Of a DNA stretch of 64,000 nt, positions 5,994 through 64,000 are shown in pieces. Every line of letters starts with the position of its first letter. Within the stretch, counting starts at the first letter, position 1. A program made the translations under genes and the position numbers. The DNA comes from Spirochaetia bacterium (GTDB taxonomy: Bacteria; Spirochaetota; Spirochaetia; DSM-2461). The stretch covers positions 1,792,001-1,856,000 of the forward strand of contig CAXXIA010000002.1 in assembly GCA_963666985.2 (NCBI GenBank), read 5' to 3'. The notes under the pieces were generated by a model that was not told where the DNA came from, searched no databases, and saw only the letters and a program-made list of their open reading frames with translations.

Positions 5994-6255
5994 AGCTGTT
6001 GATACGCTCCGGCCGCTAAATCTCTTTAGCGGCCTTCGGGCCGAGAAGATGGTGTAATTTTAGTGTTATGATATTTGCAAAGAGGAAATCAAATTGAAAC
6101 GGCTCGGCCAAATTTCGCTTTGGCTGCTTTTGTTGAGATGTTTTGGTTCGTAATCTGTGGTAATGTTAAAAGCGAGTGGTTGTTCTGGTAATTCCGTGGG
6201 GCAGCCAACCGGCTACGCCGGACGCGAAACTTCGTATACCAGCGGAACGTTAATT
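5987..6255 (+). repeat. attC site 4 (long variant tied to family A)
   Basis: TTGATACG arm variant, 269 bp. Confidence 0.9.
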
Positions 6256-6274
6256 GAACTTCTGGAATTTGTCT

Positions 6275-7617
6275 TGAGCGACCAGGACATCCTTTACATT
6301 TTAGGTTCAGGACATCGTTTACACAAAACAAGCTTAAACGAAGCATTTGAATCCATCAACTGAAGGGAGAAAGGCATAGGTTTTCAAATCAATTTCTCCC
6401 AATCTGAGATTGTCAAACCATACGGTGAAGCTCTCATCCTCATTCTCCCGAAGTCCAACTTGGTATCCTGAAAAGACATAACTGACAAAGACTCTATGCC
6501 TGTCGATAGTAACGGCTCCCCGATTATTCACCATTCTCACCAGATACCCGGCCGGGTAGATCACCTGAGGGATTCGAGGAGGGAAAGGCCGATTGGACTT
6601 TGTGTAAATACTTCCGGGAGTCTGCATTTTGAGAGCTTCATGCGGACGAACACTGTTGAATTGATTTCTCCAAACATCAAAGTGTGCCTGATGTTCTGAG
6701 AGGTTCCCTTGAATCTGTCCCTGCAATTCGCGTTTGATATCGGCATGCATTCTTTCATGCCCTCCGTTTTCACAAGGCCTTCCTGGAGTGATGCGATCAA
6801 GTTCAATTCCCAAGGCCAGCCACCAAACACTTAAGCGGGTGAGTCCGAGTAATCCCTTCATGGAAGCAAAGGGTGGTCCGTTATCGGAGCGGATTACCCG
6901 AGGGATTCCATAGAGAGAAAAGAGCTTTTCGAACTCTGTTCTAACTTCTTGTGTGTCAGCCTTTTGGAGAGCTTTGATGGTGAAGATGTATTTGGAGTAT
7001 TCATCCCGAACCGTCAGAGGTTCACACTTTTCATTATCGGGAGTGTACCACCATCCTTTGAAGTCGACCGTCCAGATATCATTAGGGGCTTTGGCCTGCA
7101 GATGTGTTTGGATTCGGCTGCCTTTGGTCTGCTGCCGTTTCTTTCGATGATGAACCAGTCCTGCTTTATCAAGGATGCGTTTGACGGTGGTGAGGCTTGG
7201 GGGATTATTATGAGGATGGGTCTTCTGGTAGATCTCGAGAATCTTTTTTGGCCCCCAGCTGGAGTTGTGCAACGTCTTGATCCGGATAATACCGCATATA
7301 ACGTCTTCAGGCGTTTGGTTGGGGCTGCTGCGAGGTCTACGGGGTCGTTCCTTCAACCCGGCGAGCCCTTCCTGGATAAACCGGTTTTTCCATTTAAGGC
7401 CTGTCGGCCGGGAGATCCCGTACTCAGCACAGAGGTCTTTCATACAGACATGGGGATCCATGGCCTTGAGGGCGAACTCGAATTTGACGTCCATAATATT
7501 GGTCTCCTTCCACGGCATAACCAGCACCTCGATAAGGGAAAGTGCTGATCATTTTAGTTCTTGTCGTGTAAAGGATGTCCTGGTACTCTCGTGTAAACGA
7601 TGTCCTGAACCCGTACC
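6275..7617 (-). mobile_element. IS481-family insertion sequence, copy 1
   Basis: 1343 bp TGAGCG...GTACC; 4-bp TSD GTCT; subterminal repeated CAGGACATC(C/G)TTTACA boxes. Confidence 0.9.
6334..7527 (-). CDS. IS481-family DDE transposase
   Basis: MPWKE start, HTH, WTVDFKG, SDNGPPF and ENGGHERMH rve motifs. Confidence 0.93.
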   Translation of the reverse strand: MLVMPWKETNIMDVKFEFALKAMDPHVCMKDLCAEYGISRPTGLKWKNRFIQEGLAGLKERPRRPRSSPNQTPEDVICGIIRIKTLHNSSWGPKKILEIYQKTHPHNNPPSLTTVKRILDKAGLVHHRKKRQQTKGSRIQTHLQAKAPNDIWTVDFKGWWYTPDNEKCEPLTVRDEYSKYIFTIKALQKADTQEVRTEFEKLFSLYGIPRVIRSDNGPPFASMKGLLGLTRLSVWWLALGIELDRITPGRPCENGGHERMHADIKRELQGQIQGNLSEHQAHFDVWRNQFNSVRPHEALKMQTPGSIYTKSNRPFPPRIPQVIYPAGYLVRMVNNRGAVTIDRHRVFVSYVFSGYQVGLRENEDESFTVWFDNLRLGEIDLKTYAFLPSVDGFKCFV

Positions 7618-7659
7618 GTCTCTGCCTCGCCTTCCGTGGCTCGGCCTTGGAGATTTATA

Positions 7660-8769
7660 ATGAGTATAAAAGAAACAATTAAGGAACTGATAGCGACGAA
7701 GAGGGAAGGCGAGTATTGGGATTTTAAGAAAGAACCTCATTCAAACAACAGCGATCTTCTTCATGACATAATCTGTATGTCAAATGCATTAATCAAACAA
7801 GATAAATATATCATTGTTGGTGTTTCTGACCCTGCACAGGGTTGCATTATTGAAGGATTAAATTCAACAACAGCAAATCGAAAAACTCAAGCAAAAATCA
7901 TTGATTTCATTCAGCACTTAGATTTTGCCGGATCCATAAGGCCAGAGGTTGAAGTACATACGATCACGATAGATGGGAAAGATGTTGATGTAATCCGGAT
8001 ACTCGATAGACCAAACAAGCCATACTATCTTGCTAGTGATAAGGATGGAGTCAAAGCGAATTATATCTATACAAGAGTTGGTGATACGAATACTCCAAAG
8101 AACAAGTCTGCAGATATATATCACGTGGAGAAACTATGGAGGCAGAGGTTTTCATTAGACCAATCACCACTTGAAAGATATAACACGTTATTGAATCAGA
8201 AAGAGTCTTGGGTCATAGATATGGGCAATAAGGACTACGCATATCACCAACTGTTTCCAGAGTTCCGGATCGAGTTTTCAGAAACCCGGGAGGGATGGGA
8301 AACATACTCACATTACTATACAAATCCAAAATCGTTTTTTGGAGTTGCCTTTTTAAAATATTTTACAACAACACTATATGAAGTTCAGTACTGTTATGTA
8401 GATGAAATGCGATTGCCTCTTGTTGTACCAAAAATCGGTGTAATCAACTCTCAAAAAGGATATATATCATATTTCTACTTCCAAATGGATACAATCGAAT
8501 GGCGGCTAAATACTATCCTAGGATTGTCATTTCTGTATCAACGAGATCCTAGATATTTACCGTTCATTTTCTACAAAGATGAAGAAGAAAAAGACGCTTT
8601 TCATAGTCATGTAAAAAACATCGCAGAAGAACTCCTCACTAGAGAACCTGAGTCTTTTGAAATCGATAAACAGAAGCGAATCGAAGAAGACGGTAAGGGT
8701 TGTGGCATTACACCGCAAAATATTGGCCGACTAGTCCGTGAGCATATTTCATGGAAGTCATCACGATAG
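7660..8769 (+). CDS. AlbA_2/Schlafen-domain protein
   Basis: EGEYWDFK, DIICMSN and YIIVGV motifs; RBS GGAG before ATG 7660. Confidence 0.8.
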   Translation: MSIKETIKELIATKREGEYWDFKKEPHSNNSDLLHDIICMSNALIKQDKYIIVGVSDPAQGCIIEGLNSTTANRKTQAKIIDFIQHLDFAGSIRPEVEVHTITIDGKDVDVIRILDRPNKPYYLASDKDGVKANYIYTRVGDTNTPKNKSADIYHVEKLWRQRFSLDQSPLERYNTLLNQKESWVIDMGNKDYAYHQLFPEFRIEFSETREGWETYSHYYTNPKSFFGVAFLKYFTTTLYEVQYCYVDEMRLPLVVPKIGVINSQKGYISYFYFQMDTIEWRLNTILGLSFLYQRDPRYLPFIFYKDEEEKDAFHSHVKNIAEELLTREPESFEIDKQKRIEEDGKGCGITPQNIGRLVREHISWKSSR

Positions 8770-8823
8770 AGCCAGAGAGTACATCCTTGTACTCTCTGAA
8801 GTCTATACATGGCTCAGAAGTTC

Positions 8824-9035: not shown

Positions 9036-9112
9036 GTCATTTAAGCTTTAAAGTCTTATCGAGTGAATAATTAGCAAAGTATTATAATTTTCTAGTTGTT
9101 TGAAATGCCTAC

Positions 9113-12869: not shown

Positions 12870-14684
12870 ATGAATACACAAATTAATAAAATTATTAAAG
12901 AATACCTCAATCGTTCAGATGTAGATTTTGCCCTATTGATCAATGGAACATGGGGATGCGGAAAAACATATTATGTAAATAACGAAATGAGGTCATTGAT
13001 AGAAAAATCAAATAAACAAATCATTTACACATCACTAAATGGATATAGCGATTTTAACAGGTTGAAGCGTAGAATAACCTTTCAATTGCTTTACCGAAAT
13101 AAATCGGTTGATCAAGATTTAATAGATGGTCTTTTTGAAATTGGAGATAATATCCCACGGATAGGTTCTGCATTCAAAATTCTAAAAACAGCAAAAGACC
13201 TTATTGAATCAAAGAAAATTGAATCAGTAGACATTTCAGAGACTGTATTTGTTTTTGATGACTTAGAAAGAATCTCTGAAAGGGCTAACACGAAAGATTT
13301 CATCGGTCAAATTTATGAAAATTATACAAAAAAGGGCGGCAAGACCATTTTTGTGGCTGATGAAAAAAATATACGGGATGAGGATTATCATAGAATTAAA
13401 GAGAAAACAATACGAACAACAATTCAGTACACGCCTGATCACGAAAAACAATTAGCAAACTTTTTAGCACATTTTAGAGCAAAAAATAAGAATGTAAATA
13501 TTACTGAAATGCAGGGGACATTTATTGAATTGTTGAAGAAACTTGAAATTCGAAATATACGAACCGTTTCCTTTGTTCTGGATAATTTCCAAACCTGCAT
13601 TTCCGTTTTAAACAAAGAACAAACCGATAAGTATGGTAAATTCATATTTGAGAATATTGGAATTTTAACATCGGAAGTAACACTTGGAGAACTGACCACT
13701 AAAAACCTTGTTGATAAGAAGGAACTTGATAGAATAACGTCCAACCCGTTCTTTTGGGATTTACACAATAAAAAGGAAGAAGAAAAAACCTATGTTGAAA
13801 ATTTCTATGAACACTATAATCAGAGTCTCGGACTTCAGTATATATTTTTTGAATCTCTGTTTGACTATATTCTTACCGGTTACTTTGACCAAGAAAAATT
13901 TGTAAAAGAGTTGGAATACACATTTGAATCAAGTAAAAAACCAGAGGAAGAAGCGGCAATAGATTTTCTTGGAAACTTTAGAGAACTTGAGCATGATCAG
14001 CTTAAATATGGCCTTGAGAATCTTGTGAAATTTCTAGAAGAGGGTGTCTATCATTTATCAAAACTACCTCACCTTTACACTATGCTTTGCTTTTTCAAAG
14101 AACGTGAATACTTAGTTGGTTGGAAATGGAACATTGAAGACATAATTAATCGTGCTTTTCAAAAATCAGAACAGGATACAAAAAAAATACCAGCTGAGAT
14201 TGATCTTGAGATGGGGTTTCATGTTTTTGACGAAAGGCAAAAGAATAATGATTTCTATAAAGAATTGATTAAAAGAATAAGGGATAAATCGGAAGAGAAG
14301 AAATTCGATAATCGGAAAGAAAAAGTGAATATTATTTTTGATAAAGCTAAAAAAAATGAAAGATTCATTGACGACCTGAGAGAGTATGAACATTCAAAGC
14401 TTTTCGGCGATATTGTTGAGACGGGAGCGACTACTAGATTTTTTGACTTAAGTAACAAAGGAATACATGATTTTGAAGCTTATCTCTATAGTGAAATACT
14501 GCAGATCAGTAATGCTGGGCAATATGGATCTAGTCAGAAAGAGCCGCTTCAGGAGATTGTAAGAACATTATCAGAGGGAATATCAAACAGTAAATACGAC
14601 TCAATGCGAGTAAAGCGATTTGAGGAATTAATTGATTATATGAGTAGGGCTATTGCTCATCTTGAGAAAACTAAATCCGGTTGA
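12870..14684 (+). CDS. KAP-family P-loop NTPase
   Basis: ALLINGTWGCGKT, FVFDDLERI and NIRT motifs. Confidence 0.85.
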   Translation: MNTQINKIIKEYLNRSDVDFALLINGTWGCGKTYYVNNEMRSLIEKSNKQIIYTSLNGYSDFNRLKRRITFQLLYRNKSVDQDLIDGLFEIGDNIPRIGSAFKILKTAKDLIESKKIESVDISETVFVFDDLERISERANTKDFIGQIYENYTKKGGKTIFVADEKNIRDEDYHRIKEKTIRTTIQYTPDHEKQLANFLAHFRAKNKNVNITEMQGTFIELLKKLEIRNIRTVSFVLDNFQTCISVLNKEQTDKYGKFIFENIGILTSEVTLGELTTKNLVDKKELDRITSNPFFWDLHNKKEEEKTYVENFYEHYNQSLGLQYIFFESLFDYILTGYFDQEKFVKELEYTFESSKKPEEEAAIDFLGNFRELEHDQLKYGLENLVKFLEEGVYHLSKLPHLYTMLCFFKEREYLVGWKWNIEDIINRAFQKSEQDTKKIPAEIDLEMGFHVFDERQKNNDFYKELIKRIRDKSEEKKFDNRKEKVNIIFDKAKKNERFIDDLREYEHSKLFGDIVETGATTRFFDLSNKGIHDFEAYLYSEILQISNAGQYGSSQKEPLQEIVRTLSEGISNSKYDSMRVKRFEELIDYMSRAIAHLEKTKSG

Positions 14685-18583: not shown

Positions 18584-18655
18584 AGATGAAAGTGAAAGCA
18601 TCTGAATCACGTCCTGTGATTCAGATGCAGTTTTGGGGTCTAGCAGGACTTCTTC

Positions 18656-18868
18656 GTTAAACAGCTGTTGATGCGCTCCGGCGTCAACTGGCGTTGCCGC
18701 CTCCGGGGCTTCGCCCAAATTTCGCTTTGGCTATGGCTCTTGCAGATGCAGCCTCAAAAGTGTTGTGATACCATCAAAGGCGAGCAAGGCATTGCTGTAA
18801 AAGTGCAAGAGCGCATGCCAACCGGCTTCGCCGGGCGCGAAACTTCGCATAACAGCAGAACGTTAAAT
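18656..18868 (+). repeat. attC site 13
   Basis: Conserved attC arms. Confidence 0.9.
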
Positions 18869-19963
18869 GAAATAAAAAGGCAAAACTGAGCGACCAGGAC
18901 ATCCTTTACATTTTAGGTTCAGGACATCGTTTACACAAAACAAGCTTAAACGAAGCATTTGAATCCATCAACTGAAGGGAGAAAGGCATAGGTTTTCAAA
19001 TCAATTTCTCCCAATCTGAGATTGTCAAACCATACGGTGAAGCTCTCATCCTCATTCTCCCGAAGTCCAACTTGGTATCCTGAAAAGACATAACTGACAA
19101 AGACTCTATGCCTGTCGATAGTAACGGCTCCCCGATTATTCACCATTCTCACCAGATACCCGGCCGGGTAGATCACCTGAGGGATTCGAGGAGGGAAAGG
19201 CCGATTGGACTTTGTGTAAATACTTCCGGGAGTCTGCATTTTGAGAGCTTCATGCGGACGAACACTGTTGAATTGATTTCTCCAAACATCAAAGTGTGCC
19301 TGATGTTCTGAGAGGTTCCCTTGAATCTGTCCCTGCAATTCGCGTTTGATATCGGCATGCATTCTTTCATGCCCTCCGTTTTCACAAGGCCTTCCTGGAG
19401 TGATGCGATCAAGTTCAATTCCCAAGGCCAGCCACCAAACACTTAAGCGGGTGAGTCCGAGTAATCCCTTCATGGAAGCAAAGGGTGGTCCGTTATCGGA
19501 GCGGATTACCCGAGGGATTCCATAGAGAGAAAAGAGCTTTTCGAACTCTGTTCTAACTTCTTGTGTGTCAGCCTTTTGGAGAGCTTTGATGGTGAAGATG
19601 TATTTGGAGTATTCATCCCGAACCGTCAGAGGTTCACACTTTTCATTATCGGGAGTGTACCACCATCCTTTGAAGTCGACCGTCCAGATATCATTAGGGG
19701 CTTTGGCCTGCAGATGTGTTTGGATTCGGCTGCCTTTGGTCTGCTGCCGTTTCTTTCGATGATGAACCAGTCCTGCTTTATCAAGGATGCGTTTGACGGT
19801 GGTGAGGCTTGGGGGATTATTATGAGGATGGGTCTTCTGGTGTCAGCACCGGTGATAAATTTCCTGAAAACACCGGAATAAGATTTCCGGTTTTGAGCCA
19901 ATAAAAACGGGCGAGTATCCCTAAGATGGAGTAACCATACACCCATCGAAAAGGACACTGCCC

Positions 19964-21217
19964 GTGAAGCTCCAGGAGAAACGCATGCACCAGGCTCAAG
20001 TGCTGGCCAAGGAAGGGTACAAGCAGTACCGAATCGCCGAAATACTCGGCGTTACCGACCGAACGGTTCGAAATTACCTCAGCGGACACAGTCCCAAAAT
20101 GAGCCCCAGGAAGAAACGGAAGAGCAAGCTCGACCACTTCAAATCCCATATTCGCAGTGTACTTGAGGAGGAACCGCTCTTCAATTGCGAGGTGCTTTAT
20201 AAGAATCTTTGCGCCATGGGTTACACCGGAGGAATCACCATCCTCCGTGATTTCGCCAAAGAGACCCGAGATGAGATTCAGAGAGAAGTAGTTCGCCGCT
20301 TCGAAACCCAGGCCGGCTACCAGGCACAGATGGACTGGAAGATATTGCCGAAGGAACACTGGCGAGGCGTCTACGCCTTCGTCATGGTCCTCGGCTACAG
20401 CCGGACTCCCTATGTGAGATTCACCACCGATATGACCAGCGGCACACTGCTGGCCTGCCACCAGAAAGCCTTTGAGTATTTTGGCGGTGTTCCTCAGACT
20501 GTATTGTACGACAACATGAAAACAGCATGGGTCCACGACGGAGAAGAGTGGAAGACCAACTCCCGGTTACTGGAGTTCGCTTCCTCCTACGGTTTCTCTC
20601 CAAGACGATGCGCCGTCAGGCGTCCCCAGACCAAAGGAAAAGTAGAGAGGTTCATCGACTACCTTTCGGGTAACTTCCTTTCTCAGGCACGGCGTAGTGG
20701 CCTGAAGACGATCGAAGAACTCAATGACGCCATTCTGCCCTGGCTGACTGAAGTTCAGCAGAAAGAGCTCCGGGACTACCAGGAAAGTCGTGCCCAGCGA
20801 TATGAGGTGGAGAAATCCTTCCTGCAACCGGCACCGCCAGAGGGAGCTTTTGACTACCGTGACAGCATTCAGCTCATTGTCAGTCGAGAAGGCTCAGTCA
20901 CCTACAAGACTAACAAGTACAGCGTGCCGCCTGTATTGGTTGGTAAGAAGCTGACGCTGAAAATCGATGCGCTTTCCATGCAGGGGGAAATCCTCAATGG
21001 GAAGGTTTCCATACGGCTATTCAATCTCCTTCCAGCTGGCTCCCGGCAGAAGGATATCCGCAATGAAGATCGGGAAGCACTCTTTACCCTGTGGGAGAAG
21101 CAGCGTAAGAAGTCGGCGAAAAAACCAGTCCGGAAGCAACAAGATGAGCAGACCATCGTCGATATCAGAAATCCTGCCTACTATGAGCGCTTTGTCGCTG
21201 TGGGAGTCTCGGTATGA
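19964..21217 (+). CDS. istA: IS21 transposase IstA
   Basis: RFET..GYQAQMDW, YDNMKT and PQTKGKVER motifs. Confidence 0.95.
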   Translation: MKLQEKRMHQAQVLAKEGYKQYRIAEILGVTDRTVRNYLSGHSPKMSPRKKRKSKLDHFKSHIRSVLEEEPLFNCEVLYKNLCAMGYTGGITILRDFAKETRDEIQREVVRRFETQAGYQAQMDWKILPKEHWRGVYAFVMVLGYSRTPYVRFTTDMTSGTLLACHQKAFEYFGGVPQTVLYDNMKTAWVHDGEEWKTNSRLLEFASSYGFSPRRCAVRRPQTKGKVERFIDYLSGNFLSQARRSGLKTIEELNDAILPWLTEVQQKELRDYQESRAQRYEVEKSFLQPAPPEGAFDYRDSIQLIVSREGSVTYKTNKYSVPPVLVGKKLTLKIDALSMQGEILNGKVSIRLFNLLPAGSRQKDIRNEDREALFTLWEKQRKKSAKKPVRKQQDEQTIVDIRNPAYYERFVAVGVSV

Positions 21218-21978
21218 ATATCAAACTTGAGACCGTCACCGAGAGAATGAATTCGCTGGGTATGAGTTTCATGTCCGCAGGACTGGAATCCTTCCTGGCA
21301 GAACCCCGCCGGCAGGAACAGACGGTACTGGATATCGTTGCCGACTTGATGGAACTTGAATACATCCCCCGTAAAGAACGGAGCGCCAAGAGCCGCTTGA
21401 AGCTTTCAGGAATGCCGGCAGTGAAAAGGCTGGAAGACTTCGACAGGGGGTGGCTCAAAGGTGGTATCACCAACCGCCAGTTTGACGAGCTCTCCTCTCT
21501 GGCCTTCATCGAGCGAAAGGAGAACGTCATTCTCATGGGTCCCAGCGGCCTGGGAAAATCTCATCTGATGCTGGCCCTGGGGCACAAGGCCTGCATGGAG
21601 GGATTCACCACCTACCATACCACCTGCATCGACCTCATTGAGAACCTGGTTCTTGCCCGAGAGAACAACCGGCTCAAGCGTCGGCTGGTATGGCTCCGAA
21701 AACCGCACCTGCTTCTCATCGATGAAGTCGGTTACGAGAAGCTGACACCCGAACAGGCTAATCTTTTCTTCCAGGTTGTGAATGCCCGGTATGAACAGGG
21801 GAGTATGATCATTACGACGAACAAGCCATTTGGCAGATGGGCGGAGATAATGAGTGATGAGGCTGTTGCCAGTGCAACCCTGGACCGTCTGCTTCACCAT
21901 GCTCATATCCTGAGTCTTCAAGGAGACTCGTACCGAATGAAGGATCGGTTGAAAGCGGGAGTCGTTGACTTCCTTTGA
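21214..21978 (+). CDS. istB: IS21 helper ATPase IstB
   Basis: GPSGLGKSHL, LIDEVGY, LDRLLHH and GDSYR motifs. Confidence 0.95.
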   Translation: MNIKLETVTERMNSLGMSFMSAGLESFLAEPRRQEQTVLDIVADLMELEYIPRKERSAKSRLKLSGMPAVKRLEDFDRGWLKGGITNRQFDELSSLAFIERKENVILMGPSGLGKSHLMLALGHKACMEGFTTYHTTCIDLIENLVLARENNRLKRRLVWLRKPHLLLIDEVGYEKLTPEQANLFFQVVNARYEQGSMIITTNKPFGRWAEIMSDEAVASATLDRLLHHAHILSLQGDSYRMKDRLKAGVVDFL

Positions 21979-22447
21979 CGCCCAAAACCGGAAAAACTAA
22001 ATCGGTGAAATCCGGAAATGTTTCGTCGGTGTTGACATCTGGTAGATCTCGAGAATCTTTTTTGGCCCCCAGCTGGAGTTGTGCAACGTCTTGATCCGGA
22101 TAATACCGCATATAACGTCTTCAGGCGTTTGGTTGGGGCTGCTGCGAGGTCTACGGGGTCGTTCCTTCAACCCGGCGAGCCCTTCCTGGATAAACCGGTT
22201 TTTCCATTTAAGGCCTGTCGGCCGGGAGATCCCGTACTCAGCACAGAGGTCTTTCATACAGACATGGGGATCCATGGCCTTGAGGGCGAACTCGAATTTG
22301 ACGTCCATAATATTGGTCTCCTTCCACGGCATAACCAGCACCTCGATAAGGGAAAGTGCTGATCATTTTAGTTCTTGTCGTGTAAAGGATGTCCTGGTAC
22401 TCTCGTGTAAACGATGTCCTGAACCCGTACCAAACAGGAATGAAGAA

Positions 22448-27550: not shown

Positions 27551-27616
27551 GGTTAATTCCGAATACTCTGTTTAAGAAGATGAACTCTCAATAAAGACAA
27601 ATATGAGGGAAAAAGC

Positions 27617-27824
27617 ACATAACAGCTGTTGATGCGCTCCGGCCGCTAAAAGTGTTTAGCGGCCTCCGGGGCTTCGCCCAAATTTGCCTCTGTCATAGAT
27701 TTTGCGTAAGTCTGTCTCTGTGGTATTATAAGTTGCAGTTAGCGATTGAGATTGTAAAATTTCGCAAAATCTCCGCCAGTCGCTACGCGAACGGCAAACT
27801 TCGCATAACAGCGGGCCGTTTGAT
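27617..27824 (+). repeat. attC site 17
   Basis: Conserved attC arms. Confidence 0.9.
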
Positions 27825-27842: not shown

Positions 27843-29185
27843 TGAGCGACCAGGACATCCTTTACATTTTAGGTTCAGGACATCGTTTACACAAAACAAG
27901 CTTAAACGAAGCATTTGAATCCATCAACTGAAGGGAGAAAGGCATAGGTTTTCAAATCAATTTCTCCCAATCTGAGATTGTCAAACCATACGGTGAAGCT
28001 CTCATCCTCATTCTCCCGAAGTCCAACTTGGTATCCTGAAAAGACATAACTGACAAAGACTCTATGCCTGTCGATAGTAACGGCTCCCCGATTATTCACC
28101 ATTCTCACCAGATACCCGGCCGGGTAGATCACCTGAGGGATTCGAGGAGGGAAAGGCCGATTGGACTTTGTGTAAATACTTCCGGGAGTCTGCATTTTGA
28201 GAGCTTCATGCGGACGAACACTGTTGAATTGATTTCTCCAAACATCAAAGTGTGCCTGATGTTCTGAGAGGTTCCCTTGAATCTGTCCCTGCAATTCGCG
28301 TTTGATATCGGCATGCATTCTTTCATGCCCTCCGTTTTCACAAGGCCTTCCTGGAGTGATGCGATCAAGTTCAATTCCCAAGGCCAGCCACCAAACACTT
28401 AAGCGGGTGAGTCCGAGTAATCCCTTCATGGAAGCAAAGGGTGGTCCGTTATCGGAGCGGATTACCCGAGGGATTCCATAGAGAGAAAAGAGCTTTTCGA
28501 ACTCTGTTCTAACTTCTTGTGTGTCAGCCTTTTGGAGAGCTTTGATGGTGAAGATGTATTTGGAGTATTCATCCCGAACCGTCAGAGGTTCACACTTTTC
28601 ATTATCGGGAGTGTACCACCATCCTTTGAAGTCGACCGTCCAGATATCATTAGGGGCTTTGGCCTGCAGATGTGTTTGGATTCGGCTGCCTTTGGTCTGC
28701 TGCCGTTTCTTTCGATGATGAACCAGTCCTGCTTTATCAAGGATGCGTTTGACGGTGGTGAGGCTTGGGGGATTATTATGAGGATGGGTCTTCTGGTAGA
28801 TCTCGAGAATCTTTTTTGGCCCCCAGCTGGAGTTGTGCAACGTCTTGATCCGGATAATACCGCATATAACGTCTTCAGGCGTTTGGTTGGGGCTGCTGCG
28901 AGGTCTACGGGGTCGTTCCTTCAACCCGGCGAGCCCTTCCTGGATAAACCGGTTTTTCCATTTAAGGCCTGTCGGCCGGGAGATCCCGTACTCAGCACAG
29001 AGGTCTTTCATACAGACATGGGGATCCATGGCCTTGAGGGCGAACTCGAATTTGACGTCCATAATATTGGTCTCCTTCCACGGCATAACCAGCACCTCGA
29101 TAAGGGAAAGTGCTGATCATTTTAGTTCTTGTCGTGTAAAGGATGTCCTGGTACTCTCGTGTAAACGATGTCCTGAACCCGTACC
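27843..29185 (-). mobile_element. IS481-family copy 3
   Basis: 1343 bp; 3-bp duplication AAG. Confidence 0.9.
27902..29095 (-). CDS. IS481-family transposase
   Basis: Identical protein to 6334-7527. Confidence 0.93.
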   Translation of the reverse strand: MLVMPWKETNIMDVKFEFALKAMDPHVCMKDLCAEYGISRPTGLKWKNRFIQEGLAGLKERPRRPRSSPNQTPEDVICGIIRIKTLHNSSWGPKKILEIYQKTHPHNNPPSLTTVKRILDKAGLVHHRKKRQQTKGSRIQTHLQAKAPNDIWTVDFKGWWYTPDNEKCEPLTVRDEYSKYIFTIKALQKADTQEVRTEFEKLFSLYGIPRVIRSDNGPPFASMKGLLGLTRLSVWWLALGIELDRITPGRPCENGGHERMHADIKRELQGQIQGNLSEHQAHFDVWRNQFNSVRPHEALKMQTPGSIYTKSNRPFPPRIPQVIYPAGYLVRMVNNRGAVTIDRHRVFVSYVFSGYQVGLRENEDESFTVWFDNLRLGEIDLKTYAFLPSVDGFKCFV

Positions 29186-30717: not shown

Positions 30718-30807
30718 GCAATTGCCCTGCCTCTTTTTTAAGAGGTAATAAATGGTGAAAAGCCGACATCCGTGTCGGCTAAGACAAAAATAAAAAGGAG
30801 ATACCAT

Positions 30808-44697: not shown

Positions 44698-44701
44698 TTT
44701 T

Positions 44702-46538: not shown

Positions 46539-46582
46539 AATTTTTTCTGGGCTTGTTACAAAGGTAATCTAGGCGTTTGTTC

Positions 46583-46799
46583 ACAAAACAGCTGTTGATG
46601 CGCTCCAGCTGATAACGAGGTTATCAGCCTCCGGGCCTTCGGCCAAATTTCGTTTTGGCGATGGCTCTTGCAGATGCGTTTCCGAAAGTGATGTGATACC
46701 ATCAAAGGCGAACAAAGCATTGCAGTAGAAGAGCAAGAGCACATGCCAACCGGCTTTCAGCCGGACACGAAACATTCGCATAACAGCGGAACGTTAAGC
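46583..46799 (+). repeat. attC site 27
   Basis: Conserved attC arms. Confidence 0.9.
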
Positions 46800-46817: not shown

Positions 46818-48160
46818 TGAGCGACCAGGACATCCTTTACATTTTAGGTTCAGGACATCGTTTACACAAAACAAGCTTAAACGAAGCATTTGAATCCATC
46901 AACTGAAGGGAGAAAGGCATAGGTTTTCAAATCAATTTCTCCCAATCTGAGATTGTCAAACCATACGGTGAAGCTCTCATCCTCATTCTCCCGAAGTCCA
47001 ACTTGGTATCCTGAAAAGACATAACTGACAAAGACTCTATGCCTGTCGATAGTAACGGCTCCCCGATTATTCACCATTCTCACCAGATACCCGGCCGGGT
47101 AGATCACCTGAGGGATTCGAGGAGGGAAAGGCCGATTGGACTTTGTGTAAATACTTCCGGGAGTCTGCATTTTGAGAGCTTCATGCGGACGAACACTGTT
47201 GAATTGATTTCTCCAAACATCAAAGTGTGCCTGATGTTCTGAGAGGTTCCCTTGAATCTGTCCCTGCAATTCGCGTTTGATATCGGCATGCATTCTTTCA
47301 TGCCCTCCGTTTTCACAAGGCCTTCCTGGAGTGATGCGATCAAGTTCAATTCCCAAGGCCAGCCACCAAACACTTAAGCGGGTGAGTCCGAGTAATCCCT
47401 TCATGGAAGCAAAGGGTGGTCCGTTATCGGAGCGGATTACCCGAGGGATTCCATAGAGAGAAAAGAGCTTTTCGAACTCTGTTCTAACTTCTTGTGTGTC
47501 AGCCTTTTGGAGAGCTTTGATGGTGAAGATGTATTTGGAGTATTCATCCCGAACCGTCAGAGGTTCACACTTTTCATTATCGGGAGTGTACCACCATCCT
47601 TTGAAGTCGACCGTCCAGATATCATTAGGGGCTTTGGCCTGCAGATGTGTTTGGATTCGGCTGCCTTTGGTCTGCTGCCGTTTCTTTCGATGATGAACCA
47701 GTCCTGCTTTATCAAGGATGCGTTTGACGGTGGTGAGGCTTGGGGGATTATTATGAGGATGGGTCTTCTGGTAGATCTCGAGAATCTTTTTTGGCCCCCA
47801 GCTGGAGTTGTGCAACGTCTTGATCCGGATAATACCGCATATAACGTCTTCAGGCGTTTGGTTGGGGCTGCTGCGAGGTCTACGGGGTCGTTCCTTCAAC
47901 CCGGCGAGCCCTTCCTGGATAAACCGGTTTTTCCATTTAAGGCCTGTCGGCCGGGAGATCCCGTACTCAGCACAGAGGTCTTTCATACAGACATGGGGAT
48001 CCATGGCCTTGAGGGCGAACTCGAATTTGACGTCCATAATATTGGTCTCCTTCCACGGCATAACCAGCACCTCGATAAGGGAAAGTGCTGATCATTTTAG
48101 TTCTTGTCGTGTAAAGGATGTCCTGGTACTCTCGTGTAAACGATGTCCTGAACCCGTACC
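46818..48160 (-). mobile_element. IS481-family copy 4
   Basis: 1343 bp; TSD TGTT. Confidence 0.9.
46877..48070 (-). CDS. IS481-family transposase
   Basis: Identical protein to 6334-7527. Confidence 0.93.
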   Translation of the reverse strand: MLVMPWKETNIMDVKFEFALKAMDPHVCMKDLCAEYGISRPTGLKWKNRFIQEGLAGLKERPRRPRSSPNQTPEDVICGIIRIKTLHNSSWGPKKILEIYQKTHPHNNPPSLTTVKRILDKAGLVHHRKKRQQTKGSRIQTHLQAKAPNDIWTVDFKGWWYTPDNEKCEPLTVRDEYSKYIFTIKALQKADTQEVRTEFEKLFSLYGIPRVIRSDNGPPFASMKGLLGLTRLSVWWLALGIELDRITPGRPCENGGHERMHADIKRELQGQIQGNLSEHQAHFDVWRNQFNSVRPHEALKMQTPGSIYTKSNRPFPPRIPQVIYPAGYLVRMVNNRGAVTIDRHRVFVSYVFSGYQVGLRENEDESFTVWFDNLRLGEIDLKTYAFLPSVDGFKCFV

Positions 48161-49410: not shown

Positions 49411-50397
49411 TTAGTCTACAGAGTAAGAAAGAAGGCCACTAGCTAAATCTGCCAGATAGATAAAGTTTCCATCACCCCAAACTCCATAGGCTGAATTGCA
49501 TTGGTCGTCGGAATCAATAAATTTCAGGTTACCCGAAGAATCAGCTTTATAGGAGAGAAGGCCACCGAAGTTATTTGCCAGATAGAGGTAGTCTCCATCA
49601 CCCCAAACTTCCATGGCGTTACCGCCCTGGTCGTCGGAATCGATAAATTCCAAGTTACCCGAAGAATCAACCTTATAGGAGAGAAGGCCACTACGGCTAT
49701 TTGCCAGATAGATGAATTCTCCATCACTCCAAACGCCATAGGCGTAACCGCCTTGATCGTCGGAATCGATAAATTCCAGGTTACCAGAAGAATCAACCTT
49801 ATAGGAGAGAAGGCCACTGCTGTAATTTGCCAGATAGATAAAGTCACCATCACCCCAAACGCCCCAGGCTGAACCGCCTTGGTCGTCAGAATCGATAAAT
49901 TCCAGGTTACCAGAAGAATCCACCATATAAGAGAGGAGACCACTATCGCTATTTGCCAAATAGATGAAGTCACCATCACCCCAAACTCCCACTGCATGAC
50001 CGCCTTGGTCGTCAGAATCGATAAATTCCAAGTTACCTGATGAATCTACATTATAGGAGAGTAGGCCACTTTCACCATCTGCCAGATAGATGTAATCTCC
50101 ATCACCCCAAACTTCAACGGCGGTTCCGCCCTTATCATCGGAATCAATAAATTCTAGATTGCCTGACGAATCTACCTTATAGGAGAGAAGGCCAATTGGG
50201 CCATTTGCAAGATAGATGAAGTCTCCATCACCCCAAACTCCATAGCCAATACCGCCTATGTCGTTGGAATCGATGAAGGTTAGATAACCTGATTTCTCGT
50301 TGTCTACATCGGATGATGGATTGCTACATCCTGCAGCGAAAATAATAAGTACCACAGAAAGAATAACATAAAAGATTTTATGTAAGGGTTGTTTCAT
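49411..50397 (-). CDS. LVIVD-like repeat beta-propeller lipoprotein
   Basis: Lipobox AAG-C; seven 42-aa repeats (GVWGDGDFIYLA...GLLSY.VDSSGNLEFIDSDD). Confidence 0.82.
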   Translation of the reverse strand: MKQPLHKIFYVILSVVLIIFAAGCSNPSSDVDNEKSGYLTFIDSNDIGGIGYGVWGDGDFIYLANGPIGLLSYKVDSSGNLEFIDSDDKGGTAVEVWGDGDYIYLADGESGLLSYNVDSSGNLEFIDSDDQGGHAVGVWGDGDFIYLANSDSGLLSYMVDSSGNLEFIDSDDQGGSAWGVWGDGDFIYLANYSSGLLSYKVDSSGNLEFIDSDDQGGYAYGVWSDGEFIYLANSRSGLLSYKVDSSGNLEFIDSDDQGGNAMEVWGDGDYLYLANNFGGLLSYKADSSGNLKFIDSDDQCNSAYGVWGDGNFIYLADLASGLLSYSVD

Positions 50398-50657
50398 TAC
50401 CCCCTCCATTAACACAGATTAACCCTTAAGGAAATATAAATATATCTAATTATATATGTTGCAATAACGAACATTAACACACCCCTATGAAATAAAACAA
50501 GAGTATTGTCGATAAGGCCTTTATAGGGATAAAAAACGCGTATACGCCGATGGTCTTCCTAAAGAATTATCATCGCTTTTCATCTATATTATATGGAAAT
50601 CAAGAAGCTTTTAGTTTTAGGGCAAAACGATAAGAGGACGTTCAGATCGGAAACTTC

Positions 50658-59987: not shown

Positions 59988-62219
59988 TTAATTCCGTACA
60001 CGTGCTCTATCTGAAATTCTTAGATCACTTCTATTCCATCCAAGAGAATTCATTTCCTTTACCATCTCATTAAATATAGGTATGTTTTTTTCATGATCTC
60101 TTACACTAACTAATAAAGCAAACTTTTGAGGCTCTAATTGCATATTATGTGTTTCAAATCTTCTCTGAAGATTCAACTTCAGCCTCCAGATGTCACCACT
60201 ACACCCCCGAGGAAAAATTCTTCTATATACTTTCACTGGGGACCATTTAAATCCGTGTTCGATTTGTTCTGATTCATATAATTTATTGATATCTTTAGGA
60301 TCAATTGGAACTTTCTTTGAATGTTTTCCATTTTTAAAAATTCCTAATGAGACTTCAATATTTGATCGGCAATACTCTGCTAGAAATGACGAGTCAGTAG
60401 GTGGTGAATATACCAAAGTCATTAATAATTCTCCATGGAACTTACCGTCAGCTCGTAATGATTCGGGTAGAGGAAAAGGTTGGCGGCTAAATTCTAAAGA
60501 ATCATATAATTCTCCCTCAAAAATCATAGTGCAAGTAAATGGATCACCAGTTAAGAATTTAATTGGTTCAAGCGGTTTTCCAAAACCATAGTATTTTACT
60601 TCTTCTGCAGTTCGTATTGGTGAATCTAGTACCGCACTATGAATGACCAAAGCCTTTATTAATTCTTTTGAAATATCACCAGATATTAATTTTGTGTACT
60701 GTGAAGCTATACTTGAAACTATAGGTGTAGAGAAACTAGTCCCAATATTTTCAGAATGCTTTGAGTCTGCAGAAACCGAAAGAACACCTGTTTGAGAATA
60801 GTTACCATTTTTATCACAATTTCCACCATAATGAATAATTTCTGGTTTTGGAATGAAACTCGGTCCGGGGCCTCTTCTAGAAAAAGGGGAAGGCTCTTCA
60901 TTTCGAACTAAAGTAATTGGTGTAAATTTATGTGTTATTGAACCAACAGATAACGCCCGAGATGAATCACCAGGTGTAGAAATTCTATCATCAATACTTA
61001 TATCACTAGGTGGCCAGTTTCGGAGAGGTATATTTGTGTAATTACCTGCTGATATTACAAATAATACATTATAAGTATCTTGTAATTCATCAAAATAACT
61101 TGCTAGTGAAGAATATGAGAACGAATCAGTAGGCGTTGAGGCTCCTAAAGAAAGATTCCAAATACGTACATAAGGAAATGATTTTATAGAATCTTCAATG
61201 GTCTCTTTGAGATCCTCTTCTGAAATTCCATTTTTGGGAGATAAAGCGCGGATGTCAATGATTTTAGCATGTACATTAGGGAAACGTGGATCGGAGTGGT
61301 TTAAACTATGATTATTAGCTATTAATCCTCCGACAAAAGAACCATGCTCAAAATCCGTTTCTTTATCTATAATCCTTTTTTTCCTAGCAACAACCCAATC
61401 CGATAGAGCTTTATTGTCATCATGAATACCTGTATCAATAATTCCAACTATTGGGTAATCGACTGATTTATCAGGTTTTGGAAAGAGTTGCTCATGCAAA
61501 TCTCCAATTGTTATATTAGTCGTTTTTAATGTTTCATATTGAGGGAACAAAGACACAGTTCTAACAGGAGGGAAAATGCATAATTTTGGAATTGTTTGAT
61601 TGTCATTAATTTCTGCCTTATATACAATTTGGTTTTTCCCATAGTTAATTTTTTTATATTTTAGAATGCCAATTTCTTCAAATACAGATAATAAACATTT
61701 ATTAATTTTATTATTTAACTCAGTATCCTTAAAATCGAATAAACTAATTTTTATCTCTCTGAAATTTTCAATAGAAATACTTGAATCAATACGATCAAAT
61801 TGAGAATAATCTAAAAAGCTTTCAAGTGATGAGATATTTGCGATATTTTCTTTTGTAGTCCCTTCCTCTATAATTCTATTCAGTTTTTCAAGACCGATCT
61901 CATTTACTCTTATTAGAAGCTTTCCAAATCCATAATCACCAATAATTGGACATGTAGAGTTATTTAATAGCGATGATGGACGATGACTTTTTGCAATAGC
62001 CTCTTTCTTTAATTCAACTCGTGCAATATTAGGTATGTTTGGCCATTTATGAAATGTTTTTTTATATTTCTGGTTAATGCTTGAAATTTGATTTGAATAT
62101 AATGAGCGCAATGACGGTGTAACATTTGAAAAAACTTTTTTAGGACCGCCAGATGAATAGGGCTTATGGTGATCTCGTTCAGAAATCGTAATTACCTGAA
62201 GGGGATATTCATCTGACAT
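59988..62219 (-). CDS. ietS: S8 subtilisin-like protease (IetS-like)
   Basis: Catalytic triad IIDTG, HGSFV and GTSFSTP; NLSLG; SAGN; KPE. Confidence 0.85.
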   Translation of the reverse strand: MSDEYPLQVITISERDHHKPYSSGGPKKVFSNVTPSLRSLYSNQISSINQKYKKTFHKWPNIPNIARVELKKEAIAKSHRPSSLLNNSTCPIIGDYGFGKLLIRVNEIGLEKLNRIIEEGTTKENIANISSLESFLDYSQFDRIDSSISIENFREIKISLFDFKDTELNNKINKCLLSVFEEIGILKYKKINYGKNQIVYKAEINDNQTIPKLCIFPPVRTVSLFPQYETLKTTNITIGDLHEQLFPKPDKSVDYPIVGIIDTGIHDDNKALSDWVVARKKRIIDKETDFEHGSFVGGLIANNHSLNHSDPRFPNVHAKIIDIRALSPKNGISEEDLKETIEDSIKSFPYVRIWNLSLGASTPTDSFSYSSLASYFDELQDTYNVLFVISAGNYTNIPLRNWPPSDISIDDRISTPGDSSRALSVGSITHKFTPITLVRNEEPSPFSRRGPGPSFIPKPEIIHYGGNCDKNGNYSQTGVLSVSADSKHSENIGTSFSTPIVSSIASQYTKLISGDISKELIKALVIHSAVLDSPIRTAEEVKYYGFGKPLEPIKFLTGDPFTCTMIFEGELYDSLEFSRQPFPLPESLRADGKFHGELLMTLVYSPPTDSSFLAEYCRSNIEVSLGIFKNGKHSKKVPIDPKDINKLYESEQIEHGFKWSPVKVYRRIFPRGCSGDIWRLKLNLQRRFETHNMQLEPQKFALLVSVRDHEKNIPIFNEMVKEMNSLGWNRSDLRISDRARVRN

Positions 62220-62229
62220 AATAATGCTC

Positions 62230-63321
62230 CTATTTTAATAGATTTGATATTTTCCCAACTGAATAATTAAATATCTCACTAATTACTTCATAAGTAAAAT
62301 ATTTGGGGTTAACAGCTCTAAGATGCTTAATAACTGAAATCTCACTAGTATCAATTTGATTGTTGGAAGCCTTAAATAAATCTATGATTGTGTCGCGTAA
62401 ATTGATTTTCTCATAATTATTTACAATTTTATTTCTAATATTATTCTCAATAATATTTTTAATCTCCGATCCGGATAATCCATCTGACGCAATCGAAAGA
62501 AGGATATTATTTTTTTCATCAATAAATCCGTGAGAATATTTGTTTATTATTTTACTTCTAGTTTCGTCATTTGGTAATGTAATATTTAATTTAAAGTTAA
62601 ATCTTCTCCAGACAGCGGGATCAAGTAAATGTTCATGATTTGTCGCTGCTAATAGAATAGTATACGAATCCAAAGCATCGATATTTTGTAATAAACTAAC
62701 TACAACCCTTTTTAATTCACCTAATTCGTTGTGATCATCCCTGACTTTAGCAAGAGAATCGAACTCATCTAGAAAAAGAATGCAAGGACGTGAGTTAACA
62801 TATTCAAATAATTGTCTAATATTTTTAGCAGTACTTCCTAAATATGAAGAAATTAGTGTATCACTTCTGGATACTATGAGCGGTAATTTTAGTTGGGAAG
62901 CGATATAGTGTGCTAATTCAGTTTTACCACACCCTGGAGGGCCATATATTAGCATTGACGGTGAAATACCAACACCATCTTTAAGAAGTTGATCTGATGC
63001 TTTTACATATTTTATAAAATTTTGTATGTCTATTGTAATATGATCGTCTAAATACACCTCAACATTTTGTGTGAAATATTTCTCATCAGCTAATGAGGAT
63101 TTTGATTCTTGATCTATTGGAATAGGTTTAATACTAAGATCTTGGGTAAATAAATTATTGGTTTTGATATTGTTTATTTTATTAATAATTCGCGTAGATG
63201 ACCCTGTATCACCTTGAATAGCTAAATTTTCTGAAAGTAATTTACTATATGATATGATTTTATCTTTATCTAATTGAAGACCGCCTTCAATTATCTTTAG
63301 AACTTCTGATAAATATTGCAT
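62230..63321 (-). CDS. ietA: AAA+ ATPase (IetA-like)
   Basis: GPPGCGKT, FLDEFDS, ELGELKRVV and LDPAVWRRF motifs; ATG 63321 with GAGGGA RBS. Confidence 0.85.
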   Translation of the reverse strand: MQYLSEVLKIIEGGLQLDKDKIISYSKLLSENLAIQGDTGSSTRIINKINNIKTNNLFTQDLSIKPIPIDQESKSSLADEKYFTQNVEVYLDDHITIDIQNFIKYVKASDQLLKDGVGISPSMLIYGPPGCGKTELAHYIASQLKLPLIVSRSDTLISSYLGSTAKNIRQLFEYVNSRPCILFLDEFDSLAKVRDDHNELGELKRVVVSLLQNIDALDSYTILLAATNHEHLLDPAVWRRFNFKLNITLPNDETRSKIINKYSHGFIDEKNNILLSIASDGLSGSEIKNIIENNIRNKIVNNYEKINLRDTIIDLFKASNNQIDTSEISVIKHLRAVNPKYFTYEVISEIFNYSVGKISNLLK

Positions 63322-63624
63322 TATTCCCTCTTGTGAAAATATATACCAATTCGTGAAAAAATGCAATATATAATGAAAATGTATCATAATATGTGAAAAA
63401 AATAAGCTATATATGAAATATCCTTCTCGATATAACATTATAGATTATCTACTTTGTCGGTAATTCGTAAAATCTGTATAAATTATACAAAAATGTCTTT
63501 TAAGCAGCATAGCAAGTATAAATTATGTAGAAAACATTAAAAGAATTAACGTTTACATTAGTCCATCAGAATCATGTCCTGTGATTCTGATGGTGTTTTT
63601 ATTGGCTCTTTTCTGGATTTCATC

Positions 63625-63895
63625 GTAAAACAGCTGTTGATGCGCTGCGGACGCTAACGAGGTTTGCGTCCTTGGGCCGAGCGATGGGAAACTATGAGTT
63701 TTATGATTTCTGTAAAAGGGAAAAATCAAATTGGTTCGGCTCGGCCAAATTTCGCTTTGGCGATGGCTCTTGCAGATGCGTTCCTGGAAGTTGTGTGATA
63801 GTCTGAAGAGAGAACAGGCTTTCTGCTAAAAGCAAGAGCGCATGCCAACCGGCTACGCCGGTCGCGAAACTTCGCATACCAGCGGAACGTTAATT
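63625..63895 (+). repeat. attC site 34 (long)
   Basis: Conserved attC arms. Confidence 0.9.
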
Positions 63896-63913
63896 GAAAT
63901 ACGGAATGGAGGT

Positions 63914-64000
63914 TGAGCGACCAGGACATCCTTTACATTTTAGGTTCAGGACATCGTTTACACTAAACAAGTTTAAACGAAGCATTTGAACCCATCAACA
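63914..64000 (-). mobile_element. IS481-family copy 5 (variant, truncated by window end)
   Basis: Same end sequence TGAGCGACCAGGACATCC with a few substitutions. Confidence 0.85.

Follow-up and report, generated by a model that had tools for sequence, protein, structure and literature searches.

The closest precedent for the element described here is the insertion of IS1202/ISAba32 elements beside Xer sites. According to the available text of the preprint on this family (bioRxiv 10.1101/2022.12.17.520857), the ISAba32 subgroup of the IS1202 family targets Xer (xrs/pdif) sites, which it abuts at 5-6 bp, a distance equal to that of its own target duplication; attC and integrons are unmentioned in that text, and how a one-gene DDE transposase comes to insert in one orientation and at a fixed distance is stated there, for ISAba32, to be an open question. 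Homing to attC in one orientation is known for the IS1111-attC group (ISKpn4, ISPst6) and for group IIC-attC introns. IS1111 members combine a DEDD transposase with a seekRNA and occupy a specific place in the attC site (available part of PMC11187229), and group IIC-attC introns are retroelements (available part of PMC3001079). Among Tn7-like elements, TnsD targeting includes tRNA- and CRISPR-array-targeting elements, as described in the accessible portion of PMC11837452. Regarding the IS481 family, the preprint text describes terminal inverted repeats of IS3/IS481 that start with 5'-TGT at both ends, and target duplications of 2-15 bp, mostly 6 bp, are given in the available text of PMC10045372. 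No published report of IS481 elements targeting attC or tRNA was found in the literature, ISfinder entries lying outside the scope of the search, and such targeting is not described in the available parts of PMC3789691, PMC12444791 and PMC4889954.

Here, a 1.34-kb IS481-like element is described that is present in 13 copies in a spirochaetal genome, 10 of them within one integron array. Insertion just behind an intact attC would represent a third, mechanistically distinct route by which mobile elements exploit integrons, and the habit is widespread in spirochaete arrays.

Placement of the element in the integron array

The window, that is, the whole stretch of 64,000 nucleotides that was analysed, contains five copies of the element and the attC sites preceding them:

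5986..6255 (approximate bounds), plus strand: attC-type repeat upstream of copy 1, crossover G at 6249
6275..7617, minus strand: element copy 1, subtype A, 1343 bp, intact
6271-6274 and 7618-7621: target duplication of copy 1, 4 bp
18655..18868, plus strand: attC upstream of copy 2, G at 18862
18887..22431, minus strand: element copy 2, subtype A, duplication AAAC, split by an IS21 element
19842..22037, plus strand: IS21-family element (istA/istB) nested within copy 2
27616..27824, plus strand: attC upstream of copy 3, G at 27818
27843..29185, minus strand: element copy 3, subtype A, 3-bp duplication
46582..46799, plus strand: attC upstream of copy 4, G at 46793
46818..48160, minus strand: element copy 4, subtype A, duplication TGTT
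63624..63895, plus strand: attC upstream of copy 5, G at 63889
63914..64000, minus strand: right end of copy 5, subtype B, duplication AGGT; the copy reaches window-equivalent position 65253

A preliminary description of this DNA had reported that the element inserts 25-26 bp downstream of attC crossover points in a single orientation. The five distances from the attC G (6249, 18862, 27818, 46793 and 63889) to the element starts (6275, 18887, 27843, 46818 and 63914) proved exact, the transposase lies on the minus strand in all five copies, and the duplications GTCT, AAAC, AAG and TGTT were found as claimed, with AGGT added by the fifth copy. The duplication of copy 3 is corroborated by an empty paralogous cassette (contig C2, position 1911589). 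Neither the interruption of copy 2 by IS21 nor the subtype status of copy 5, which shares 85% DNA and 89% protein identity with subtype A, appeared in that description.

Genome-wide mapping, run as the check that might contradict this picture, revealed no copy at a variable distance or orientation. Indeed, 10 of the 13 copies lie 25-26 bp 3' of an attC crossover G in a single orientation, in an array with 87 attC ends, and the three remaining copies, located off the array, keep the ruler to an attC-end-like motif. The chance of such a placement per insertion is 1.8e-5 genome-wide and 5.5e-4 within the array. An internal control is provided by two further IS families of this array, whose seven copies all lie 179-1312 bp past the previous attC G and occur in both orientations. 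Target duplications measure 3-5 bp, with a mode of 4, and 10 of 12 complete copies carry their own exact duplication in unrelated flanks. Past the crossover G, the first and second cuts fall at 21/25 (six insertions), 22/26 (two), 22/25 (one) and 21/26 (one), so that all four possible combinations are represented.

The proposal that cassette leaders act as a safe harbour held in part: an ORF starts downstream of the insertion, at +31 to +72, in five of the nine full array copies, the other four having no plus-strand ORF under the rule applied. Against it, 10 of 43 unoccupied cassettes have an ORF start within 25 bp, and one off-array copy disrupts a gene at codon 5. The last array copy bridges two different leaders, revealing a flank swap, and many such swaps are found in relatives; same-register copies in many leaders can also rearrange arrays without integrase. 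The contigs of four runs, a material that drops rare forms, contained no circle junction and no end-to-end joint. A near-identical element is fully covered by one wetland contig; its flank there lies in the expected register but, at 23 nt, is too short to count.

At the array head lies a divergent, integron-integrase-like gene encoding a 277-aa tyrosine recombinase. The protein scores 220 bits against TIGR02249 (cut-off 265) and 224.6 bits against NF040815 (cut-off 220), leaving profile positions ~178-240 unmatched.

Transposase, element ends and relation to known systems

The features of the element are given for copy 1:

6334..7518, minus strand: transposase, 394 aa from ATG, with an in-frame GTG at 7527
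6364..6546, minus strand: C-terminal all-beta domain, residues 325-385
~6517-6528, minus strand: hairpin N331-N332-R333-G334 of the protein, putative target reader
6275..6324, plus strand: right end, target-proximal, 8-nt tip (5'-TG)
7566..7617, minus strand: left end, target-distal, 10-nt tip (5'-GG)

The single transposase ORF occupies 1185 of 1343 bp. The protein comprises two N-terminal helical/HTH domains, a DDE core (D152-D212-E255, with K262 seven residues past the E) and a C-terminal beta-barrel, and matches the Pfam families rve, rve_3, HTH_32 and HTH_28. Modelling of the C-terminal domain, suggested in the preliminary description, yielded a beta-barrel with an IstA-like fold, but the domain folded alone reached a pLDDT of only 51.5 and that model was discarded. 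Both fold and profile match IstA through the C-terminal domain; the VIA-align rows cover residues 68-309 and so barely test that domain. The non-coding ends (~60 and ~100 bp) consist mostly of repeats. Each end carries two transposase-binding-type repeats 25 bp apart, at positions 9 and 34 of the right end and 11 and 36 of the left end, and the tips, 5'-TGA and 5'-GGT, are fixed by exact duplications in 10 copies. The ends are thus asymmetric, and the one with the 8-nt tip faces the target. An outward promoter suspected by eye in the left end was not supported by a promoter scan, which gave 0.

The element resembles the IS481 family in its single ORF, HTH domains, rve/rve_3 DDE core and lysine seven residues after the glutamate. 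The IS481 profile NF033577 is the best of five NCBIfam families, at 203.1 bits, under its cut-off of 224, and relatives at ~40% identity that are annotated as "IS481 family transposase" by NCBI fall in neighbouring clades. Unlike IS481, with TGT at both ends, the element has TGA/GGT tips and ends with two internal repeats at offsets 8 and 10, and its 3-5 bp duplication lies inside the IS481 range but is not the usual length. With ISAba32 it shares being a one-gene DDE element related to IS481, inserted beside, not inside, a tyrosine-recombinase site of gene cassettes, at a fixed distance and orientation. The two differ in family, since NF033594 gives the element 33.8 of 250 bits and IS1202 has Q in place of K262 seven residues after the catalytic E. 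They also differ in target, which here is attC, with 21-22 free bases between site and first cut. Moreover, whereas the ISAba32 authors, in the available text, argue against sequence alone, non-attC sites here show a linear motif. In contrast to the IS1111-attC group and the IIC introns, the element inserts with a target duplication and without disrupting attC; its fold is DDE, not the DEDD of the IS1111-attC group, and no guide-like match was found. The preliminary comparison with Tn7 applies to the geometry but not to the machinery: this is a 1.34-kb, one-gene element without TnsA, TnsC ATPase or TnsD/TniQ, and thus, unlike IS21 and Tn7, it encodes no AAA+ ATPase (TnsC/IstB).

Target motif and competing explanations

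All 13 copies lie 25-26 bp from the motif C[AC]GC[GT]GnnCG-N6-G, which in 10 cases is located at an attC end; for copy 1 it is found at:

6240..6256, plus strand: target motif at the attC 3' end, 26 bp from G 6249 to copy 1

The three off-array copies have an attC-end-like motif at exactly 25, 25 and 26 bp. When a weight matrix derived solely from the 87 attC ends of the array was applied, its maxima fell at these same offsets among 52 tested (p 6.7e-5, 2.5e-4 and 2.6e-3). These sites lack the TT of GTT, and an L/R hairpin sought at the three of them was not found, the pairing runs being 6, 2 and 3 (background sites reach a run of 6 in 10.75%). The maintenance of motif and ruler at hairpin-less sites argues for reading of a linear DNA motif and not of a hairpin or IntI, although within this genome the case rests on three sites. 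The preliminary description had left sequence, hairpin and bound protein as alternatives for recognition of the attC end; that recognition is supported, with the sequence a better candidate than the hairpin or bound IntI.

We therefore consider, from sequence data, that this is probably an active IS481-like element whose lone transposase picks its target via a short linear dsDNA motif at the attC 3' end. The motif would be read as double strand, coinciding in this host with the attC 3' end, and the element ends would be joined at distances of 21-22 and 25-26 bp past the crossover G. An IstA/TnsB-like multimer may be bound at the two repeats of each end, with a flexibly tethered C-terminal beta-barrel gripping the motif through the putative hairpin (N331/R333) and the asymmetry of the ends setting orientation. 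The two strand cuts appear to wobble by one base independently, as expected with a remote recognition site. In this way the element would home to cassette leaders, usually leaving attC and cassette ORF intact. Two related ideas were discarded. Targeting of a mimic of the element's own repeat (CAG-N5-CGTT) has the wrong geometry for an end-like site, the off-array consensus retains GCnG, which is missing from the repeat, and the repeats of relatives are unlike their targets; a periodicity of 7 bp suspected within the motif, with G at -7, 0 and +7, is not shared by the relatives.

Matches to the degenerate motif with G+7 number 311 off the array and 72 within it. That 10 of 13 copies nevertheless lie within the array means that the motif must be supplemented by graded affinity, by selection or by a host factor. 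This array excess, far above the motif-count prediction, favours recruitment of the transposase, via its C-terminal barrel, by a host protein bound to the attC end, either IntI or some other factor with sequence specificity, which would parallel the recruitment of IstA/TnsB by IstB/TnsC and that by XerC/D proposed for ISAba32. In the available text of PMC11208146, the IstA barrel binds its partner IstB and donor DNA, not target sequence, making the homologous barrel a protein-docking domain in IS21; the preprint text on IS1202 leaves such recruitment open for xrs targeting, and the upstream letters of the motif differ considerably from host to host and between attC sites used by a single transposase. 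Nevertheless, IntI is an unlikely anchor off the array because GTT and hairpin are missing there (another dsDNA-binding factor would still fit), and in the rhizobial clade the T-arm-like motifs used lie outside complete tRNA genes, so that we regard this explanation as rather unlikely. Recognition of the folded attC cruciform or single-stranded hairpin, with the ruler measured from the hairpin base, seems improbable. The bottom strand of the copy 2 attC does fold well as a cruciform, with R and L boxes paired and unpaired bases present, and an attC-like bottom-strand fold reached z = -5.0 at one site. After two looser hairpin scores failed to separate attC from background, a strict L/R pairing test was used, which 6 of 10 occupied array sites pass (background 0/400 at that score), the test itself missing 4 of 10 array attC sites; it is also passed by 19 of 36 relatives' sites, hand-picked, vs 1.5% of background, and the heptamer-adjacent clade could likewise respond to unusual DNA structure. 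Yet the three off-array copies keep motif and distance without a partner arm, and the preference for one spacer variant at occupied sites (9/10 vs 29/78; Fisher p 0.002, post hoc) is a sequence effect.

An RNA guide, in the manner of the seekRNA that attC-targeting IS1111 members use (available text of PMC11187229), would allow target motifs to differ between clades, as they do, but is very improbable considering that the element contains no target match longer than 6-8 nt, that the longest is 7 nt in three relatives vs 7.8-7.9 for shuffles, and that the ends are short, mostly repeats, and the enzyme DDE, not DEDD. The absence of any targeting, the pattern instead resulting from selection among random insertions or from the copying of a single ancient insertion (along with its cassette or through recombination), is hardly credible. 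Leader insertions are tolerated and flanks are swapped or, in relatives, shared, but this model is already contradicted by the data: the complete copies mostly carry their own exact duplications in unrelated flanks, the other two IS families scatter, and off-array copies hold the ruler, one even breaking a gene.

Relatives and their landmarks

There are at least 7,347 homologues, and mapping in relatives revealed an attC-following, mostly spirochaetal clade. In an unselected metagenome set, of which all 80 loci were examined, CGTT lies 18-21 bp from the tip in 46 of 61 readable left flanks vs 2 of 58 right flanks, and 45 of the 46 CGTT-bearing flanks are distinct; one match (L204) is outside the clade and may be due to chance. 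The attC group forms one side of a branch in a quick tree (20 rows, SH-aLRT 98). N331 and R333 are invariant in its 58 proteins but not in 12 heptamer-group or 9 tRNA-group proteins, and a clade found 14-15 bp behind attC lacks them; since the link concerns one clade, it is not independent evidence. An automated classification scored 76 of the 89 N[ND]RG loci that could be read as attC-type, and none of 37 others, but it misplaced some element ends and is not relied on here. The target letters shared clade-wide are only CG(TT), G+7 and A+10, with CGTT fixed by site picking, which would have required every transposase to become adapted to the attC of its own host. In relatives, many copies have no duplication or have a proximal flank in common with another copy (2 distinct of 4 in G377, 3 of 5 in G365), and raw counts therefore overstate independent insertions.

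Other clades follow attC at 14-15 bp, lie at 34-36 bp from the T-arm motif of tRNAs, or adjoin 7-mer repeats; the 36 attC-type and 32 heptamer-survey loci were hand-picked after their flanks were seen, and nothing relevant on heptamer-repeat targeting was found in the literature. The same-genus G012 elements (47% identity) are not attC-adjacent, and two Leptospira plasmid elements of a further clade, read by eye, have no CGTT at the matching place. In rhizobial relatives, a T-arm-like motif precedes the right repeat by 44-46 nt in 10 of 13 plasmid loci, lying within an ARAGORN tRNA at three loci only; outside whole tRNA genes it again appears to be a linear motif. It is possible, although we advance it tentatively, that these elements constitute a large subfamily of IS481-like DDE integrases, each a single protein directed to specific sites, in which the C-terminal beta-barrel is an exchangeable reader retuned during evolution to different safe landmarks (attC ends at 14-15, 18-21 or 25-26 bp, a T-arm motif at 34-36 bp, 7-mer tracts), enabling Tn7-like oriented targeting without ATPase, selector or guide RNA. 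Specificity might then be moved by swapping one 60-residue domain. The family makes the question raised for ISAba32 testable, offering a defined motif and ruler, natural variants at other motifs and candidate residues, and a site-directed integrase of 394 residues would be of interest as a tool. In the closest relative (L133, 62% identity), the right end lies 26 bp behind a clear attC that retains 8 of 9 motif positions.

Spacing of the element behind attC ends

Thirteen copies of the element, a 1.34-kb insertion sequence with a single gene, were found in the 4.86-Mb host genome (G000, 3 contigs): nine of subtype A (identity 99.9-100%; an IS21 splits one of them), three of subtype B (approximately 85% identity to subtype A) and one 133-bp right-end fragment. 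Ten of the 13 are housed in one array on contig C2, which comprises 87 attC-type ends on the same strand, and each lies 25-26 bp downstream of the crossover G (position 0 of the attC 3'-end motif, C[AC]GC[GT]GnnCG-N6-G) in a single orientation. The preliminary description had reported five of them in the window, with the attC G at 6249, 18862, 27818, 46793 and 63889, distances of 26, 25, 25, 25 and 25 bp, and a minus-strand transposase; positions and distances proved exact, the strand was borne out for all five, and the regularity extends to every array copy. Exact 3-5 bp target duplications with unrelated flanks border 10 of the 12 complete copies, the other two showing a duplication with a one-base mismatch and a flank swap, in which the two flanks come from different cassette leaders. 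The 3-bp duplication of copy 3 was confirmed by an empty paralogous cassette. One strand cut is made at +21 or +22 and the other at +25 or +26; all four combinations are represented. The flank-swapped copy is the last in the array (G000:C2:1933553-1934892); it has no duplication, and its distal flank begins at +22 in a leader of another family. This suggests that the end of the array was truncated or rearranged by a deletion between two copies.

The array is headed by a divergent tyrosine recombinase:

G000:C2:1777145-1777939 (L001:1204-2037), minus strand, 277 aa, integron-integrase profile

This protein scores below the TIGR02249 cut-off and only slightly above that of NF040815, so calling the array an integron owes more to its layout and the structure of its sites than to the score of the integrase. 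Profile positions ~178-240, which we take to be the expected place of the integron-specific insertion, find no match in it. Folding the bottom strand of one attC site gave a cruciform (z = -5.0) in which the R and L boxes pair and some bases stay unpaired. Under a strict pairing rule, 6/10 occupied array sites pass at a score reached by 0/400 background sites, the rule missing the other four. Occupied sites prefer one spacer variant (9/10 vs 29/78, a post hoc comparison). An unusual length of ~195-260 bp marks the attC sites of the window (the one at 5986-6255 and the repeats throughout), which contain GC-rich hairpins; some are spaced ~440 bp apart with no long ORF in between.

Target recognition

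The three copies outside the array decide between the targeting models:

C1:1274631, off-array copy
C2:730735, off-array copy
C2:3078803, off-array copy

All three sites carry C-9, G-7, C-6, G-4, C-1, G0 and G+7 in the attC register; GTT and the partner arm were looked for there and are absent from all three. A weight matrix trained on array attC ends only, with 52 offsets tested per site, reached its maxima at offsets 25, 25 and 26 (p = 6.7e-5, 2.5e-4 and 2.6e-3, with 9.4 million non-array positions as background). One copy interrupts a gene at codon 5 and another cuts into two convergent genes where their 3' ends overlap, indicating that these sites are not selected harbours. The copy at G000:C1:1274631-1275998 has three left-end repeats, not two, and the 302-aa ORF that it interrupts at codon 5 has a lipoprotein-like start.

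The two ends of the element are unequal. On the right, next to the target, the tip measures 8 nt (5'-TG); on the left, away from the target, it measures 10 nt (5'-GG). Behind either tip come two repeats, 25 bp apart. The AlphaFold model of the transposase (137 sequences, pLDDT 90.1) comprises, from the N-terminus, two helical domains, then the DDE core and, at residues 325-385, an all-beta domain. Its best structural matches are IstA (IS21), CAST TnsB and retroviral intasomes, and the profile match to IstA spans positions 198-392. According to the accessible part of PMC11208146, the barrel of IS21 IstA has a flexible tether and serves to bind either IstB or donor DNA; as the element has no ATPase, we infer that its barrel would be free for reading target DNA. 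Direct reading of the linear motif by the transposase, probably via the barrel hairpin, is the explanation that we consider probable. Spacing, orientation, motif and unequal ends are observed directly. As to subunit roles and reading residues, one subunit in an IstA/TnsB-like multimer would probably grip the motif with its hairpin, strand transfer would take place ~21-26 bp away, and the unequal ends would fix orientation.

In G000 the degenerate motif has 311 occurrences outside the array and 72 inside it, which speaks against reading of a short motif alone; the preference for the array must come from better matches, selection or a host factor. A host protein anchoring the element at the attC end could supply this preference, and we regard it as rather unlikely. 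Recognition of the folded attC hairpin is very improbable, given that the partner arm is missing from every off-array site. The attC-homing IS1111 elements are RNA-guided, as stated in the available portion of PMC11187229; for the present element a guide-like target match was looked for inside the element and not found, and an RNA guide is scarcely credible. The lack of any targeting can practically be dismissed, since two other IS families, with seven copies in this array, stand at 179-1312 bp from the preceding attC G, which argues that the array itself does not impose the 25-26 bp spacing.

Relatives and their targets

All 80 loci of a metagenome set were examined. CGTT with its G 26-29 nt ahead of the first end repeat (~18-21 bp to the tip) was found in 46/61 readable left flanks, 45 of them distinct, and in only 2/58 right flanks, L180 and L133. 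The latter, the closest full-length relative (62% identity), has its right end 26 bp past a clear attC with 8/9 motif positions. The 15 left-flank misses include these two right-proximal elements and four members of other clades; most of the remainder look attributable to miscalled ends or gaps in the assembly. Among 36 clade members hand-picked from 76 genome loci, 35 have CGTT or CATT at 26-29 and 19 passed the strict pairing test. In two near-complete genomes all intact copies (4/4 and 5/5) lie at 28-29 inside ~100-repeat arrays; they have only 2 and 3 distinct proximal flanks and many lack duplications, and thus represent fewer independent insertion events, suggesting rearrangement between copies. 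Very large cassette arrays occur at G377:C1:2.285-2.40 Mb and G365:C1 from 2.287 Mb (105 and 99 same-strand attC-like pattern matches).

The attC group forms one side of a branch with SH-aLRT 98 (quick tree, 47 chosen rows). Residues N331 and R333 of the barrel hairpin are invariant across its 58 labelled proteins, which is not the case for the heptamer group or the tRNA group; as the attC group is one clade, this amounts to a lead and not to proof. Compared with other clade members, the window element, L133, L037 and L180 have the transposase gene flipped with respect to the two tips, short and long; even so, it is still the short tip that points to the target.

Other groups adjoin different sites:

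L085-L088, L091, L092, L095, L098, L120, L121, L127: 14-15 bp attC clade
L215, L216, L218, L274, L275, L277-L281: rhizobial T-arm-like motif
L029, L039-L045, L050, L051, L058, L063, L067, L069, L074, L152, L154, L187: heptamer repeats

The first, a separate clade (~35% identity), lies 14-15 bp past attC-type ends and has its left end next to them (8/12 loci by pattern); two copies away from attC retain CG at 15 bp, and attC homing may have arisen twice. Rhizobial plasmid members have a T-arm-like motif 44-46 nt ahead of the right repeat at 10/13 loci, the other three being unreadable; the right tip lies 34-36 bp from the motif, often without a whole tRNA gene (present at only 3 loci). Relatives in Verrucomicrobiota, Myxococcota and others adjoin 7-mer tandem repeats via the short-tip right end (18/24 right flanks vs 5/24 left, hand-picked). 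The elements of genome G012 were examined for attC adjacency and none showed it, so not every relative shows a target. Tentatively, the subfamily might be a set of site-directed integrases that work with one protein and whose target module can be swapped.

IS481 is the best family match and neighbours are annotated as such, but the element scores below the family cut-off and its tips read TGA and GGT instead of TGT. The preliminary description had called it Tn7-like; the resemblance to Tn7/TnsD holds for targeting geometry (accessible part of PMC11837452), but the element has no ATPase and lies outside the Tn7 family. ISAba32-type IS1202 elements likewise adjoin a recombinase site (bioRxiv 10.1101/2022.12.17.520857, as far as available), but the element falls outside IS1202. 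No report of IS481 elements targeting attC was found in the literature surveyed, thin in subscription journals and exclusive of ISfinder, where an overlooked entry is possible. Insertion behind attC is a real, clade-wide targeting habit, apparently undescribed so far.

Cassette contents of the window

Many cassettes look like anti-phage or conflict-type systems, including STAND NTPases, a KAP NTPase, CAP12/Pycsar TIR, SIR2-like proteins and a subtilase + AAA pair:

3084-5372, candidate anti-phage/conflict-type cassette
12870-14684, candidate anti-phage/conflict-type cassette
25089-26309, candidate anti-phage/conflict-type cassette
30772-34548, candidate anti-phage/conflict-type cassette
35101-38172, candidate anti-phage/conflict-type cassette
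59988-63438, candidate anti-phage/conflict-type cassette

In the cassette at 44621-46538, a 334-aa ORF without assigned role overlaps a 308-aa reverse transcriptase (RVT_1), a layout that we read as retron-like. An ORF of six 126-bp repeats, LVIVD/beta-propeller-like, lies on the minus strand at 49411-50415.
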